Shown in pieces: positions 5,877-57,747 of a stretch of 64,000 nucleotides of DNA; within the stretch, counting starts at the first letter, position 1; each line of letters begins with the position of its first letter. Below the pieces are notes generated by a model, which saw only the letters and a program-made list of their open reading frames with translations, did no database searches and was not told the DNA's origin. Position numbers and translations under genes: made by a program. This DNA is from a candidate division WWE3 bacterium CSP1-7 (lineage in GTDB: Bacteria > Patescibacteriota > WWE3 > 9FT-COMBO-53-11), in assembly GCA_001443395.1 (NCBI GenBank), contig LDXK01000001.1:32001-96000 (forward strand), in the 5' to 3' direction.

Positions 5877-5934
5877 GACGGCTCGGTTAAAGCCGAACCT
5901 AGTTATCCAGCACTCTCAAGAAAGTGCTGGATAA
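5877..5934 (-). mobile_element. Type A mini-cassette at secA 3' end
   Basis: TTATCCAGCACT..AGTGCTGGATAA-CTA-GGTTCGGC ttta ACCGAGCC-GTC|TTACCAG. Confidence 0.8.
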
Positions 5935-25375: not shown

Positions 25376-25383
25376 GAAAAATG

Positions 25384-25426
25384 GACGGCCGCCTATGGCG
25401 ACCTAGCATTTTGAAGAAACAAAATG
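25384..25426 (-). mobile_element. Type A mini-cassette at ndh start
   Basis: CATTTTG..CAAAATG-CTA-GGTCGCC ata GGCGGCC-GTC|CATTTTT. Confidence 0.8.
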
Positions 25427-31918: not shown

Positions 31919-31957
31919 TGCAGAATAAGCTTAACTCAAAGGTTAACGATTTCAATG

Positions 31958-31997
31958 GACGGCTCGGCTATGCCGAACCTAGCATTCCGGAGGAATG
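31958..31997 (-). mobile_element. Type A mini-cassette in recJ 3' end (translated)
   Basis: CATTCC-tcc-GGAATG-CTA-GGTTCGGC ata GCCGAGCC-GTC|CATTGA. Confidence 0.8.
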
Positions 31998-36713: not shown

Positions 36714-36754
36714 CAATTTTTCTTAAAAATTGCTAGCCCGCTTAGGCGGGCGTC
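36714..36754 (+). mobile_element. Type A mini-cassette after DUF3048 stop
   Basis: CAATTTTT-ctt-AAAAATTG-CTA-GCCCGC ttag GCGGGC-GTC|CAATTA. Confidence 0.8.
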
Positions 36755-36757
36755 CAA

Positions 36758-38056: not shown

Positions 38057-38098
38057 GACGGCTTGGCTACGCCAAACCTAGCCTTAGCTTTGCTAAAG
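38057..38098 (-). mobile_element. Type A mini-cassette in promoter of 38106 gene
   Basis: CTTTAGC-aaa-GCTAAGG-CTA-GGTTTGGC gta GCCAAGCC-GTC|CTT. Confidence 0.75.
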
Positions 38099-38105
38099 TT
38101 AAACC

Positions 38106-38399
38106 GTGGCTAAGAAAACCCGCCAAGAGAAGGATCTGGCCCGGCTCCGTCGGCAGATAGAAGTGCTAAGGGCCCAAAACAGCGAGCGTTCCCATGACTA
38201 CTCCCCTCCCCCGCGGGAGGTGCAAGAAGAAAGCAAGCCGGGAAAATCTACGGAACCACCGATCAAGAATTTGGAAATCAGAAAAGTCGCCCCTAAATTT
38301 ATTAAAGCCGATCTGCTCAAAACCATCGTCCTCTCTTTGGCGGCGCTGGCAGTTATCGCCGCTTTATATCTGTTGCGCAATCAAATTCCTTTCCTCTAG
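38106..38399 (+). CDS. Hypothetical protein with C-terminal TM anchor
   Basis: Basic N-terminus, hydrophobic C-terminal helix; GTG 6 nt after TG-c-TAAAGT. Confidence 0.7.
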   Translation: MAKKTRQEKDLARLRRQIEVLRAQNSERSHDYSPPPREVQEESKPGKSTEPPIKNLEIRKVAPKFIKADLLKTIVLSLAALAVIAALYLLRNQIPFL

Positions 38400-38422
38400 A
38401 GTTCTTCTCTCGGTCGGTATTG

Positions 38423-38470
38423 GACAAGAAGTACAATCCCGGCCTAGAGTTCTTCCCTAGGCCGGTATTG
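38423..38470 (-). mobile_element. Degenerate type A cassette with recoded comM 3' end
   Basis: QYRPREEL* encoded twice (38444-38470, 38396-38422); junction GTC|CAATAC; inner hairpin lost. Confidence 0.8.
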
Positions 38471-43773: not shown

Positions 43774-43812
43774 TTTGGTTTACCAAAATGCTAGGGCGTT
43801 TCTGCGCCCGTC
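43771..43812 (+). mobile_element. Type A mini-cassette at rny start
   Basis: CATTTTGG-ttta-CCAAAATG-CTA-GGGCG tttctg CGCCC-GTC|CATTTTTT. Confidence 0.8.
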
Positions 43813-43838
43813 CATTTTTTTGCATCCTTCTTTGTAAA

Positions 43839-45944: not shown

Positions 45945-46550
45945 TTAAGCCTTAAAGTTCTCTTCAACCTGATCCCAATTCACGACGTTCCACCAGGCCT
46001 CGATGTATTCCGGCCGGCGGTTTTGATACTGGAGATAGTAGGCGTGCTCCCAGATGTCCAAACCCAAGAGGGGGGTTAGACCCTGGGAAAGAGGCGAATC
46101 CTGGTTGGGGGTTGGCACGACCGAAAGTTTTCCGTCCCCGCTTTTGACCAACCAAGCCCAACCGCTCCCAAAAATCGCCGCGGCAGCATCGCTGAATTTC
46201 TTTTTGAAATCTTCAAAACTGCCAAATTCACTCTTGATGATACCCCCCAGATCACCGCTTGGCTCCCCTCCCCCACTTTTTTTCATCATCTTCCAGAAAA
46301 GCGAGTGGTTAAAGTGTCCCCCACCGTGATTGCGCACCGCGGTGCGAATATCTTCGGGAATCGAATTTAGGTCCTTGAGCAAGTCCTCTAGGGATTTGGG
46401 TTGCAGATCGGGGTATTTTTCCAGAGCCTTGTTCAGCTTCTCCACGTAAGTGGCGTGATGCTTGTCGTGGTGAATCTGCATCGTCTGGGCGTCAATGTAC
46501 GGTTCCAACGCGTCGTAGCTGTAGGAAAGGGGTTGGAGTTCGAAGGCCAT
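45945..46550 (-). CDS. sodA: Superoxide dismutase (Mn-type signature)
   Basis: [26 protein letters not shown]. Confidence 0.95.
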
Positions 46551-46588
46551 TGTTCTACTACTTAACACACTTTTGGCTTAAAATACAA

Positions 46589-47128
46589 ATGATGAAGCGA
46601 ATTTTTCTCGCCGTACCGGTCACTCAAAAGATTATCAGAGAATTGGCAAAAGAAATTGAGAGGCTCAAGAAATCATTACCTGATTGGGAAATAAAATGGG
46701 TCACACCGGAAAATCTTCACATCACTCTCGTTTTCTTTGGCTGGGTTAAAGAAGATCAGATAAAAAATCTCAAGACCGAGATCGAGGCATTGGTTCCAAA
46801 ATCCACACCGTTCCAAATCACGACCGGCAAATTATTCCTAAAAGTAAGACCACTATGGCTCGAAATTGAACAAGGTCGAGAGGAACTTAATCGACTCGCT
46901 GAGGAAATAGGACATCAACTGACCATTAAAGGTTCGCTCAAGGAAGAACGCGGATTCTACCCCCACCTCACTTTAGGGCGGGTTAAGAAGCGAGGCAAGA
47001 TCAAACTACCGTTGGTTCATGAAGAATTTTCTTGGAAAGCAAATCGATTAGTCCTCTACGAAAGCAGATTTGTCCGCAAACAGCGCGTTTATGAGGAGTT
47101 ATTCCCATTCCCTTTGAAAGGGAATTAA
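46589..47128 (+). CDS. thpR: RNA 2',3'-cyclic phosphodiesterase (2H family)
   Basis: Two HxT motifs (LHITL, PHLTL); MKRIFLAV. Confidence 0.9.
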   Translation: MMKRIFLAVPVTQKIIRELAKEIERLKKSLPDWEIKWVTPENLHITLVFFGWVKEDQIKNLKTEIEALVPKSTPFQITTGKLFLKVRPLWLEIEQGREELNRLAEEIGHQLTIKGSLKEERGFYPHLTLGRVKKRGKIKLPLVHEEFSWKANRLVLYESRFVRKQRVYEELFPFPLKGN

Positions 47129-47145
47129 AACAGGCCTGTTTTATT

Positions 47146-47161
47146 ATATATAGTATACTAT
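47146..47161. promoter_or_regulatory. Second copy of ATATATAGTATACTAT palindrome
   Basis: Identical to 9000-9015, again between convergent genes. Confidence 0.45.
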
Positions 47162-47223
47162 TAGATAACGGGGCTTGACTAGAGCAGTTTTGGCAGTTCT
47201 ATCCTTTAGCGCTTGGAATATTG

Positions 47224-47315
47224 GACGCGACCTTGTCGCTAGAAATTTTGCGAAGCAAAATTTAACGGCCGCGGACGCATCCTAGCAGTATTCTTCGCTA
47301 ACGCTTCGAATACTG
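47224..47315 (-). mobile_element. Two tandem type A cassettes at rpsI 3' end
   Basis: Units 47264-47315 and 47224-47263; QYSKR* encoded twice. Confidence 0.85.
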
Positions 47316-47702
47316 TGGCCGCTTGCGGGCTTTCTTGAGGAAATATTTCTTTCTCTCTTTTTCGCGGGGGTTGCGAGTCATCAAGCCGGCATCGCGCAAT
47401 GGCTTGCGCAGGTCTCCATTGAAAAGGACGAGAGCTCGGGAAATTCCCAAGACGATAGCGTCCAATTGACCAACCTTACCTCCCCCCTCCGCCCGGGCAA
47501 CAAAGTAAAATTTATCTTCCGTTCCGGTCGCTCTGTAAGGCAAAACCAACTTGGCTTGGAAAGAATCAATCGGAAAATATTTAGAAACGGGGGTGCCGTT
47601 CACAGTTGATTCCCCTTTTCCGGCGAACAACCGGACCGTGGTGGTCGCTTCCTTCCTTCGGCCGATCGCTTGATAAAATTTTCCTTGCTTTTTTTCTGAC
47701 AT
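47298..47702 (-). CDS. rpsI: 30S protein S9
   Basis: GRRK, GGG..GQ, ERKK, PQYSKR. Confidence 0.97.
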   Translation of the reverse strand: MSEKKQGKFYQAIGRRKEATTTVRLFAGKGESTVNGTPVSKYFPIDSFQAKLVLPYRATGTEDKFYFVARAEGGGKVGQLDAIVLGISRALVLFNGDLRKPLRDAGLMTRNPREKERKKYFLKKARKRPQYSKR

Positions 47703-47745
47703 TTTATTTCTTTAAAATGCTAGGTTCGGCGTTAGCCGAGCCGTC
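47700..47745 (+). mobile_element. Type A mini-cassette at rplM-rpsI junction (translated as L13 tail)
   Basis: CATTTTA..TAAAATG-CTA-GGTTCGGC gtta GCCGAGCC-GTC|CATTTT. Confidence 0.8.
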
Positions 47746-48162
47746 CATTTTTACCTTACCGATCATCTCCCCTTCTTCCCCGGGGTACACGAATAGCCGG
47801 GTGATCATTCTACTGCCAAGTTTGTTCTTGGGCAGCATTCCCAACACCGCATGGCGGATAATCTCCTGCGGCCGCCGCTTCCTTAACTCTCCTAGATTCT
47901 CCGATTTTAATCCGCTCGGGTACCCGGAGTAGCGGAAGTAGCGCTTTTGGGTTTCTTTCTTGCCGGTTACCTCAATTCTGGCCGCATTTTTAACGACAAC
48001 GTAATCTCCCTGGTCGAGATAAGGAACCCAATCCGTTTTCTCCTTTCCAATTAGGAGTCGGGCAATTTTGGTCGCCAGGCGACCCAGGACCTGATCTTTG
48101 GCATCGAAGAGGTACCAACTTCGTTCGACTTTATCTTCACTTCGCTTTTGCGGTTTTGGCAT
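47704..48162 (-). CDS. rplM: 50S protein L13
   Basis: LGRLAT, GDYVVV.NA, YSGYPSGLK, GMLPKN. Confidence 0.96.
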   Translation of the reverse strand: MPKPQKRSEDKVERSWYLFDAKDQVLGRLATKIARLLIGKEKTDWVPYLDQGDYVVVKNAARIEVTGKKETQKRYFRYSGYPSGLKSENLGELRKRRPQEIIRHAVLGMLPKNKLGSRMITRLFVYPGEEGEMIGKVKMDGSANAEPSILKK

Positions 48163-48553
48163 TTTTTGTTCCTTTCTTGGTAGGCTTTTTCACGCTCCCA
48201 GTTTTAGCTACCACCTTCGGCTTTGCTTTCGCCGGTTTGATCTCTTCGACAAATTCCACCCGCGCCTGCGGTGCCCGGTCGCCGCGCCGATAGGAGAGTT
48301 TAACAACTCGGACGTAGCCCCCGATCCGTTGGCTGAATTGGGGAACAATCTGGTCGATGAATTTCTGCGCCGCTCCCTTCTTGGTAAAAAGCGCCAGGGC
48401 CTTCCGCCTGGTAACAAGATTCAAATTTTTGGAACGCGAAATTAGTCGGTCAATTTCCCGTTTGAGAGCTTTTGCCTTGGCTTCGGTTGTGACAACTTTT
48501 TCGGAAGAGACCAGAGAGGTGAGGAGTTGGCGCATCGGTGACGATCCTTTCAT
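48137..48553 (-). CDS. rplQ: 50S protein L17
   Basis: TTEAKAK, GGYVRV, RRGD.A; follows rpoA. Confidence 0.92.
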   Translation of the reverse strand: MKGSSPMRQLLTSLVSSEKVVTTEAKAKALKREIDRLISRSKNLNLVTRRKALALFTKKGAAQKFIDQIVPQFSQRIGGYVRVVKLSYRRGDRAPQARVEFVEEIKPAKAKPKVVAKTGSVKKPTKKGTKNAKTAKAK

Positions 48554-49333: not shown

Positions 49334-49376
49334 GACGCCCGCCTCAGGCGGACTAGCTATCCGCTAACGCGAATAG
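49334..49376 (-). mobile_element. Type A mini-cassette at rpsD 3' end
   Basis: CTATTCGC-gtta-GCGGATAG-CTA-GTCCGCC tga GGCGGGC-GTC|CTATTCAAGATAA. Confidence 0.85.
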
Positions 49377-49982: not shown

Positions 49983-50101
49983 GACGGCTCGCCTGCGGCG
50001 AACCTAGCAATGTCCCGCTTACTGTCTCCGAACTGAAATTTTGTCATAGTATTTTCTTTATCCATTACACTCTTCGGCGGTTCTTTGGCCGCGGGCCATT
50101 G
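49983..50101 (-). mobile_element. Type A cassette with recoded rpsK 3' end
   Basis: [11 protein letters not shown] encoded twice (50065-50101, 49946-49982). Confidence 0.9.
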
Positions 50102-50436: not shown

Positions 50437-50477
50437 TTTTTGTTTATTCAAAATGCTAGGTCGTTTCTTCGGCCGTC
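50434..50477 (+). mobile_element. Type A mini-cassette at rpsM-rpsK junction
   Basis: CATTTT..AAAATG-CTA-GGTCGTTTCTTCGGCC-GTC|CATTA; core identical to the 2841 and 57694 copies. Confidence 0.8.
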
Positions 50478-50479
50478 CA

Positions 50480-50906: not shown

Positions 50907-51004
50907 GACTGTCCTCGCTAAAGCTCGGTTGGACGGTCGCCTTAGGTGACCTAGCAATCTCTCTACACTCGATTGTACAAACATAGTTCTTATAGTCATC
51001 CTTG
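50907..51004 (-). mobile_element. Stacked cassettes at rpmJ 3' end
   Basis: CAAGGATGA duplicated (50996-51004, 50898-50906); internal type A unit plus type C-like unit, each ending GTC|CAA. Confidence 0.75.
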
Positions 51005-54816: not shown

Positions 54817-55362
54817 TCAAGCTCCCCCTCCCGCGGCCGCCTTAACCACCTTCCCCTGCTTGCGGCGGACAACCTCTCCGGCGTAGCGAATCCCTTTGCC
54901 CTTGTATGGTTCGGGCGGGCGAAGCTTGTGAAGCTGGGCCGCCGTTTGGGTCACCACCGCCTTGTTTATCCCCGTCAACTTGATTTTGGTACTGTCGGTC
55001 ACTTCTACCGCCACCCCTTCCGGTATTTTAAATTCCACCGGATGCGAGAAACCCAGAGAGAGTTTTAGCCCCAGGGCGACCTTTTCGGCCCGATAACCCA
55101 CTCCCACCAGCTCCAGCTCTTTGCTGAATCCCTGGCTAACTCCCTCAACGGCATTGCGAACCAGCGCAAAACCCAAGCCATAAACCCGCGCCGGAACGGC
55201 CGCCGCCGCCGAAAAACGCAGCTCTTGATCCATCACTACCGCCTGCACTCCCCTGGGAAGATCAACCGAGAGCTGACCCAACGGACCGGAGACCCCGACG
55301 ATTTGACCTTCGACGAGGACACTTACACCTTCCGGCAATTTAATCGGTTTCTTTCCAATCAT
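54817..55362 (-). CDS. rplF: 50S protein L6
   Basis: [28 protein letters not shown]. Confidence 0.96.
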
Positions 55363-57705: not shown

Positions 57706-57739
57706 TTTTTCAAAATGCTAGGTCGTTTCTTCGGCCGTC
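57694..57739 (+). mobile_element. Type A cassette with replacement rpmC 5' end
   Basis: Old ATG AGC CGT ATG (57740-57751) versus new ATG AGC AAA ATG (57694-57705). Confidence 0.8.
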
Positions 57740-57747
57740 CATACGGC

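Follow-up and report, generated by a model that had tools for sequence, protein, structure and literature searches.

What has placed a second copy of its own last codons behind the gene of a ribosomal protein, and what are the short self-complementary sequences that stand between the two copies? The question arises at the 3′ end of rpsI (ribosomal protein S9) in the candidate division WWE3 bacterium CSP1-7, in a stretch of 64,000 nucleotides (nt) of contig LDXK01000001.1 that was analysed as a whole and is called the window below; an earlier note, made from the letters of this DNA alone, had drawn attention to it. The explanation that we consider probable, with moderate confidence, is a stack of small, non-coding mobile units that resemble the CGTC-tagged repetitive extragenic palindromic (REP) elements, insert beside a target similar to one of their own arms and carry a replacement for the terminus of the gene. 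The window is part of contig C1 of a genome of 572 kb in 7 contigs that is 80% complete (G000; window coordinates are genome coordinates minus 32000). The comparison set of 41 genomes consists of G000, nine relatives from its family (G001–G009: three congeners, G003 among them, and members of six further genera, G008 among them) and 31 genomes from other families of the same class; G002, which is 83% complete, was compared with G000 over almost its whole length.

The live end of rpsI (…KKARKRPQYSKR-TAG) is spelled CAG TAT TCG AAG CGT TAG (QYSKR-stop) on the minus strand and is embedded in the first of two adjoining units, each composed of an arm X, a loop, the complementary arm X′, CTAG, a G+C-rich piece and a closing GTT or GTC (Table 1). 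The earlier note had described two tandem cassettes, each self-complementary to its own start, which proved accurate: The arms pair at 8/8 positions in unit 1 and at 9/9 in unit 2, and a repeat search recovered both pairs as perfect inverted repeats. It had also seen QYSKR-stop twice, and the second copy, behind unit 2, indeed equals the live one at 14 of 18 bases, with all 4 differences being synonymous or exchanging one stop codon for another. Because they are 92 nt apart, the two copies are out of frame with each other. Translational hopping over the unit, or an in-frame use of the old end, was considered and rejected, since the protein is already terminated by the new copy, with which the old one shares no frame. 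Beyond the displaced end, a third CTAG and a further GTT may represent an older, eroded unit, judging from the letters there; in G003 and G008 the arm at the corresponding place is intact and accompanied by CTAG. When 171 nt of the region are folded as RNA, the G+C-rich piece of unit 1 pairs with the end of unit 2, with a stability that is not significant (z = −1.5). Because this piece pairs across unit 2, the latter is possibly nested inside unit 1 and does not simply stand behind it. A scan of positions 46000-48500 against Rfam gave 0 matches at E up to 1, and a scan for terminators and promoters called nothing within 47206-47315.

The two units belong to a family that is dispersed over the genome, which came to light through motif and structure scans only: A BLAST search with the 121-nt rpsI-end stretch against its own genome returned the self match alone. 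The core of the family reads TG-CTAG-short GC hairpin-CGTC-CA, so that the conserved signal, given as CTA in the earlier note, has to be corrected to CTAG plus CGTC. Defined by its flanks alone (TGCTAG-N11-22-CGTCCA, with the reversed motif as control), the core occurs 37 times in G000 versus 1 control hit. The nine family relatives hold 18, 40, 49, 12, 2, 1, 7, 4 and 17 copies, the first three numbers belonging to the congeners and the other six genera ranging from 1 to 17. Outside the family, 27 of the 31 genomes have none and the remaining 4 a single copy each, with controls of 0-2; public sequence records that share the core are labelled Patescibacteria or Saccharibacteria. In a scan of G000 for CTAG followed by a hairpin and GTC or GTT, 72 of 1412 CTAG strand-sites (5.1%) qualified, versus 0.8-2.0% for 13 other tetramers. 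CGTC ends 49 of these 72 hits, of which 39 have G at −1, 42 have C at +1 and 33 have A at +2, and the flanks of the 49 are complementary at 3.9 of 6 positions versus 1.6 with the arm shifted.

Each unit combines two kinds of hairpin. The GC hairpin of the core mostly has a stem of 5-7 bp and a loop of 3-6 nt, and it exists in many stem variants with the pairing kept. The hairpins formed by X and X′ are mostly perfect, with loops of 2-5 nt, and unique to their own locus. Across the four units found at rpsI ends, X and X′ pair in 85% of cells versus 21-38% in slid controls, a comparison of four sequences only, and in 3 of 12 pairs X′ tracks X with changes on both sides. Moreover, the 67 oriented GC hairpins contain 39 G.T pairs versus 6 A.C pairs, irrespective of the direction of the neighbouring gene. 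Because the G.T excess is independent of gene direction, the strand that has CTAG before and CGTC after the hairpin is the folding strand, which suggests that single-stranded DNA or an RNA of the unit itself, and not the mRNA of the host, is what folds.

Repeated gene ends of the rpsI type were sought among all 1752 open reading frames (ORFs) of at least 80 residues in the genome: The last 5 residues plus stop recur within 400 nt downstream in 5 cases and in none when the same test is applied upstream of the ORF starts, so that these repeats exceed chance. The five genes are rpsI, rpsK, a comM-like gene, a penicillin-binding-protein-like gene and an ORF of 243 residues, and four of them share one layout, namely gene, X, remaining codons, stop, X′, CTAG, GC hairpin, GTC, old X, old codons, old stop. 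The exception is the comM-like gene, where the X′ arm and GTC are present, CTAG and the GC hairpin are absent, and the site may be a unit that lost its core. At rpsK, 7 of 12 codons of the displaced end are respelled and this end adjoins the rpsD ATG; rpsD itself now ends TAT TCG CGT TAG, and its old end TAT TCA AGA TAA still overlaps the rpoA ATG.

Gene ends are only one of several positions taken by the family. With their X side, 30 of the 49 CGTC units lie between −20 and +60 nt of a gene boundary, versus 9.6% of 5000 random positions: 18 at protein starts, 8 at protein 3′ ends and 4 at tRNA 5′ ends. The units at protein starts run antisense to the gene (CATTTT, an 8-nt loop, AAAATG, CTAG and so on), and one of them occupies the start of rpsI, which is accordingly flanked by one member of the family at each end. 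This start unit is present in G000 and G002 and absent from the 8 other family loci examined, including those of G003 and G001. The upstream gene rplM reads through it (47704-47751) and gains 14 residues (…KVKMDGSANAEPSILKK), and the loop supplies TAAAATG, which is the rplM stop joined to the rpsI start. Some units merely lengthen an ORF, for example a gene of 549 residues by 9 residues. The tRNA-Leu, tRNA-Gly (twice) and tRNA-Asn genes carry units at their 5′ ends (contig C2 at ~55000-55300 and 78050; C3 at ~33900); the tRNA-Gly and tRNA-Leu units repeat the first 7-18 tRNA bases unchanged, and displaced 5′ fragments are left behind. The 5′ leader of the 5S rRNA (C1, ~126800-126900) holds a 48-nt unit that is absent from G002, its upstream arm agreeing with the native G002 sequence at 12/12 positions and the downstream copy at 9/12. 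A further unit of 45 nt lies in frame, on the opposite strand, inside an ORF of 191 residues (C5, 15770-15838) and is likewise absent from G002.

The units are present or absent from one relative to the next, with clean empty sites, and where they are stacked the stacks differ in height. At the rpsD-rpoA junction, compared in six genomes (G000, G001, G002, G003, G008 and G009), there are 0 units in G002, G001 and G009, 1 in G000 and in G008, and 4 in G003: The empty sites show the plain overlap …TCA AGA TAATG, into which G000 has a clean insert of 43 nt, and three of the genomes have three different GC hairpins at this one site. The G003 junction holds three identical tandem units plus a fourth of another kind; the identical ones suggest self-targeting of the unit's own arm or unequal crossing-over. 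Between rpsK and rpsD, a unit is present in G000, G001 and G008 and lacking in G002, G003 and G009. Genome-wide, both flanks of 50 of the 72 motif sites are found on one G002 contig, and 26 of these sites are longer in G000 (by at least 18 nt), 11 longer in G002 (by at least 21 nt) and 13 equal; among 153 motif-free control gene boundaries, 27 are longer in G000 and 76 are equal. The aligned empty sites of G002 give inserts of 42, 43, 45, 48 and 49 nt.

At the rpsI end, G003 has three QYSKR-stop copies and four CTAG units, G008 three copies, and G004 two full copies of 14 codons plus a decayed third; the displaced ends are longer in G008 and G004, at 14 codons, and those of G003 and G008 differ from that of G000 at synonymous sites only. 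rpsI homologues were found in 40 of the 41 genomes, and inspection by eye revealed no extra copy of the gene end in G005, G006, G007 and G009 (4/9 of the family) or at 20 loci from the class. G002 and G001 cannot be scored because their contigs end inside the rpsI end and inside the second copy, respectively. Contigs that end inside or next to rpsI-rplM unit arrays (C9 of G002, C9 of G001, C8 of G003) are an observation in their own right, and it seems that assemblies of these genomes commonly break because of such units. The second unit of G003, which has a further unit on top of it, is a homologue of G000 unit 1 (42/52 bases). Because this homologue precedes a hairpin unit other than unit 2, units 1 and 2 do occur apart, and the view of the earlier note that independent cassettes accumulate at one site therefore stands; the differing unit numbers at rpsI and rpsD-rpoA, which it had proposed to look for in relatives, support it as well. 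Two of the checks that it proposed gave a negative result: The hairpin of unit 2 was found at no other place (0 of the 9 family genomes at up to 3 mismatches), so that only the architecture and the class of core recur, and the contigs of 4 sequencing runs, which cannot reveal rare variants, contained no 0- or 1-unit rpsI allele. Contigs from 3 of these runs span the array in the same two-unit form, those of the fourth stop on either side of it (at 47086 and 47356), and a few joints close to the array, whose sides are short (21 nt), probably stem from other copies. Overall, the evidence supports the interpretation in that note as largely right.

The differences between the two copies of a gene end indicate separate ancestries. 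The five unit-linked pairs of old and new ends comprise 43 codons with 25 synonymous differences and 1 non-synonymous difference, and 25 of the 33 base changes fall at third positions; when 33 changes are placed at random, a mean of 20.8 codons is changed non-synonymously, and 1 or fewer was reached in 0 of 20000 simulations. With 0 repeated termini in the upstream control, the pairs are not chance products. The end of the GAPDH gene shows conservative residue changes too, as between orthologues (ALVEHVVRVGNLISK versus ALVEHVIRVGSLIKA). Duplication on site followed by decay fails to account for this pattern because a dead copy would gain changes at all codon positions, and the simple form of this idea, a target-site duplication with neutral decay, is ruled out by the synonymous-only differences together with the empty site of G002: There, the rpsD end TAC TCA AGA TAA has 1 difference from the downstream copy of G000 and does not match the upstream one. 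It is thus the old copy, and not the new one, that corresponds to the relative's empty site, and the two differ like diverged orthologues. The unit-borne rpsD ends of G000 and G003 are alike (TCG CGT/CGG TAG) and unlike the native ends of their hosts. The displaced rpsI end together with its arm is identical at 36/37 positions between G003 and G008, the rpsI genes of which agree at 285/405. The 243-residue ORF has a unit in both G000 and G002, with cores identical at 23/23 positions and diverged coding flanks: The live copies differ at 8 codons, with X′ having tracked X, the displaced copies differ at 6 codons, all synonymously and with 0 non-synonymous changes, and the live copy of G000 is nearest to the displaced copy of G002 (4 differences). 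Taken together, these relations suggest that units turn over fast and pass, cargo included, from one lineage to another.

Table 1. Positions in the window of the rpsI-end array, its component parts and other members of the unit family (sub-ranges on the minus strand run from high to low)
Feature	Position	Strand	Remarks
rpsI (ribosomal protein S9)	47298..47702	-	ORF, 134 residues; last 6 codons inside unit 1
Unit 1, presumed newest	47264..47315	-	sequence, inverted repeat; carries the working QYSKR-stop
Unit 1, arm X	47315-47308	-	CAGTATTC
Unit 1, loop		-	14 nt; contains the rpsI stop codon (47300-47298)
Unit 1, arm X′	47293-47286	-	GAATACTG
Unit 1, CTAG	47285-47282	-	
Unit 1, G+C-rich piece	47281-47267	-	15 nt
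Unit 1, GTT	47266-47264	-	
Unit 2	47224..47263	-	sequence, inverted repeat; no gene-end cargo
Unit 2, X/X′ hairpin	47263-47243	-	loop TTC
Unit 2, arm X	47263-47255	-	AAATTTTGC
Unit 2, arm X′	47251-47243	-	GCAAAATTT
Unit 2, CTAG	47242-47239	-	
Unit 2, small hairpin	47239-47227	-	GCGAC-aag-GTCGC
Unit 2, GTC	47226-47224	-	
Displaced older rpsI end	47206..47223	-	CAA TAT TCC AAG CGC TAA (QYSKR-stop); outside the rpsI frame, untranslated there
Possible third, decayed unit	47167..47205	-	X′-like arm remnant, CTAG (47182-47179), 9 nt, GTT
Unit at the start of rpsI	47700..47751	+	CATTTT (antisense ATG)-8-nt loop-AAAATG-CTAG-GC hairpin-CGTC-CATTTT
Core of the unit at the rpsD 3′ end	49334..49356	-	43-nt insert relative to the empty G002 site
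Core of the unit at the rpsK 3′ end	49983..50007	-	
Displaced old rpsK end	49982-49946	-	
Displaced end of the comM-like gene	38396..38443	-	last 9 codons (QYRPREEL-stop), 3 synonymous differences, behind the X′ arm
Further core	50454..50479	+	TG-CTAG-hairpin-CGTC-CA
Further cores	2861-2886, 36731-36756, 43789-43814, 57716-57741	+	
Further cores	5877-5902, 25382-25408, 31956-31984, 38057-38081, 50930-50956	-	

The gene that converges on rpsI, an ORF at 46550-47128 on the plus strand, has two H-x-T-L motifs (HITLVF, HLTLGR) recognizable by eye and appears like a 2H phosphoesterase of the LigT/ThpR type.

The architecture described above suggests the following course of events. Read on its own top strand, a unit would comprise X, the loop, X′ as its exact complement, CTAG, the short G+C-rich hairpin and CGTC, and the second copy of X behind CGTC, usually starting with CA, would belong to the target. 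Insertion would take place beside a short X-like target in the few outermost codons or bases of a gene, at its start or its end, and the loop would replace the part cut off: At a 3′ end it would provide the last codons together with a stop, at a 5′ end a new leader with its ATG, and at a tRNA the first bases. Because the loop would resupply what the insertion removes, the gene would stay whole, and its old terminus would be displaced outward and persist as a relic that is not translated. Stacks would arise when another unit hits either this X again or the CGTC junction of a unit already in place, with the newest unit adjoining the gene; at rpsI, unit 1 would then provide the working QYSKR-stop, the cargo-less unit 2 would lie behind or within it, and the old QYSKR-stop would come last. 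The borders of the unit may be drawn in two ways, either as [X, loop, X′, CTAG, hairpin, CGTC] placed 5′ of the target X or as [loop, X′, CTAG, hairpin, CGTC, X] placed 3′ of the native X. The better pairing of X′ with the upstream X in every cargo unit suits the former, and the 5S leader, where the upstream X is the native G002 sequence, suits the latter; under both, the target would be chosen by its likeness to an arm of the unit. The units would thus travel between genomes with their cargo, the folded top strand, as single-stranded DNA, would be the active form, and X′ would serve as guide for the target. In its strong version, this is an insertion guided by base pairing, in which X′ beside a REP-type hairpin reads the target and a change in X′ both retargets the unit and resets the extent of the cargo, a proposal that we put forward as tentative.

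The cut would presumably be made by an enzyme acting in trans, for which a RAYT-like Y1 (HUH) transposase is the best candidate and an Xer-like tyrosine recombinase the second. G000 has one ORF of the first kind (Y1_Tnp/RAYT-like, 215 residues, C1 145880-146672), in which HUH and Tyr motifs are recognizable by eye, and one of the second, which scores 72 bits versus a cut-off of 265 bits for integron integrases and looks like a housekeeping Xer type. A search of G000, which is 80% complete, for reverse transcriptase (RVT_1), TnpB (OrfB_IS605), serine recombinase (Resolvase) and IS110 transposase found none of them. Because position ties neither candidate to the units, and distribution does not clearly do so, the assignment of an enzyme can only be tentative. 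Upstream of the RAYT-like ORF stand two direct copies of a 15-nt perfect palindrome, which may be an operator; it was rejected as a dispersed repeat, as it occurs nowhere else in the genome.

Several observations weigh against mobile units of this kind. The RAYT-like ORF exceeds the Pfam cut-off (33.8 bits, cut-off 23) and stays below that of NCBIfam (56.9 bits, cut-off 80), its gene is not flanked by units, its relatives occur in 25 of the 41 genomes, many of them unit-free, and G002, which has 40 units and is only 83% complete, gave no match to it. The G+C-rich piece of unit 1 has no clean hairpin of its own, the insert within the 191-residue ORF has no X match at its target, and no movement is seen within the sampled populations. 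The gene calls are crude ORF calls, and the five codon pairs had been pre-selected at 70% or more residue identity. Furthermore, X/X′ hairpins that are mostly unique to their locus, that of unit 2 included, would fit arms copied from the target equally well, and at G008 rpsD both copies of the end are identical over 19 nt, hairpin included, as expected of a self-templated duplication. The last two points lead to the alternative that we take most seriously, although we regard it as unlikely: A generic core (CTAG-hairpin-CGTC) would be inserted by a copying process that makes X′ and a direct copy of the flank on the spot, with nothing specific to the gene being transported. The synonymous differences would come later, as homologous recombination with unit-free relatives would overwrite one of the copies. 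The perfection and short loops of most X/X′ hairpins would follow naturally, and the 5S leader, in which only the upstream arm agrees fully with G002, as well as the three GC hairpins at one rpsD site are in line with it. What speaks for transported cargo instead is that copying would need a separate recombination at each respelled locus of G000, that in G000 and G003 the rpsD ends within the units are similar to one another and unlike the native ends, that the 37-nt piece of cargo plus arm is almost unchanged across genera, and that snap-back copying would have difficulty producing loops of 14-60 nt.

A role in the service of the host seems improbable to us. The units would then be punctuation at gene borders, kept for processing, termination, translational coupling or supercoiling, subject to ordinary turnover and not, or no longer, selfish; their enrichment at gene boundaries, the TAAAATG of the start-type unit and the identity of the core in G000 and G002 at the 243-residue ORF, amid diverged coding flanks, accord with this, and a role of REPs in mRNA stability and termination is assumed in the literature (PMC3733652). 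Yet the G.T asymmetry tracks the strand of the unit and not the direction of transcription, the hairpins are followed by no T run and have neither terminator calls nor Rfam matches at rpsI, one junction in an essential operon has alleles with 0, 1 and 4 units, some units are located within reading frames, and a regulatory role leaves the displaced gene ends unexplained. We consider it distinctly improbable that the array consists of att-site relics, left by larger integrative elements that had the rpsI 3′ end in their att site, integrated repeatedly and were then almost wholly deleted. Replaced 3′ ends with tandem displaced ends are the classical signature of integrases, as at icd, tRNA and tmRNA genes, and one tyrosine recombinase is present; against this stand the housekeeping appearance of that recombinase, inserts of 42-49 nt with clean borders at five loci, the same small core at 37 sites and the fact that none of the junctions compared, in five relatives, holds a larger element. 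It is highly improbable that there is no element at all and that the repeats stem from local slippage or from replication errors that form palindromes at the operon end: Template switching can perfect quasi-palindromes, and the RNA fold is no more stable than shuffles by a significant degree, but this reading is already contradicted by copies that differ synonymously only and by a core shared among 37 sites and confined to one bacterial family, and an identical insert architecture recurs at unrelated genes, tRNAs and the 5S rRNA.

We found no published description of such elements or of displaced termini in a search that covered few subscription journals. REPs have been known for forty years; to our knowledge, their mode of insertion is still unclear, and we know of no transposase for the CGTC class. 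In the units described here the scar of insertion is legible, with the target on both sides, its complement inside, a substitute terminus in the loop and the old terminus pushed outward, so that the rule of insertion, the order of events and the horizontal origin would be readable from the letters alone. Such a scar would represent a way for a mobile element to occupy the ends of essential genes in a minimal genome harmlessly, and would explain why assemblies of these genomes often break, and why odd C-terminal extensions occur, at gene borders. Should X′ indeed act as a guide, the unit would be a very small, naturally retargetable insertion module: a selfish element of 45 nt that colonises ribosomal protein, tRNA and 5S rRNA genes and homes between genera with a spare gene end, leaving a dated fossil stack and offering the first visible insertion mechanism for CGTC-type REPs.

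Comparison with known systems places the units near, and not within, several classes. DDE-type miniature inverted-repeat transposable elements were rejected, as the flanking arms vary by locus and the repeated target may be as short as ~4 nt or as long as 16 codons; intrinsic terminators were rejected as well, since CTAG or CGTC-CA and no T run follows the hairpins. TIGR-Tas arrays were dropped because the units are dispersed and self-matching; Tas genes were not searched for. With the attC sites of integrons, the units share a folded single-strand site in which structure is kept over sequence, newest-first stacking and a junction after the G of GTT or GTC. They differ in having many insertion sites and neither integron integrase, attI platform nor cassette ORF, and GTTRRRY is fitted by the unit 1/unit 2 junction only (GTTAAAT), by chance. 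IS200/IS605 elements and their miniatures likewise have single-strand hairpin ends, a short target paired to a guide and strand-specific folding; in contrast, the targets found here are variable, locus-specific and repeated on both sides with no fixed 4-5-mer, and the 80%-complete G000 has no TnpB and no IS200-type TnpA beyond the RAYT-like ORF. Integrative elements that target gene 3′ ends bring a substitute end with them, as do phage 21 and e14 in icd and islands in tRNA and tmRNA genes. Common to these and the present units are a differently spelled replacement end, a displaced old end and piled relics, whereas the present units are gene-free, measure 40-130 nt, use one core for many target genes and also occupy gene starts and the 5′ ends of RNA genes.

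The REPIN-RAYT system is closer in that it combines a hairpin doublet, a single-copy gene for a RAYT-type Y1 (HUH) transposase and a non-autonomous mode of life. Here, however, the two hairpins are dissimilar, the RAYT-like gene is not flanked by units and not clearly distributed with them, and the units seem to cross genera, whereas REPINs are described as vertically inherited. The nearest described class is that of the CGTC-tagged REPs. According to Di Nocera et al. 2013 (PMC3733652), these have stems of 8-9 bp, loops of 4-5 nt, an unpaired CGTC tag, a tail near CCA and no dedicated transposase; that paper uses neither the word "duplication" nor the term "target site", and Patescibacteria are not among the hosts it lists. 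Measured against this description, the present units have shorter stems (5-7 bp), are tagged on both sides, with CTAG, which is not a described tag, before and CGTC after the hairpin, have that hairpin always coupled to a second, locus-specific one, and carry replacement termini while leaving displaced, respelled gene ends behind. What they share, as far as a comparison by description goes, with the CGTC- and GTAG-tagged REPs of the same source is substantial: short G+C-rich hairpins with an unpaired CGTC and a C(C)A tail, tens of copies in many subfamilies with compensating stem changes and G.T pairs, and a position near or overlapping gene ends, with some copies inside genes and a tag that sometimes serves as the stop codon.

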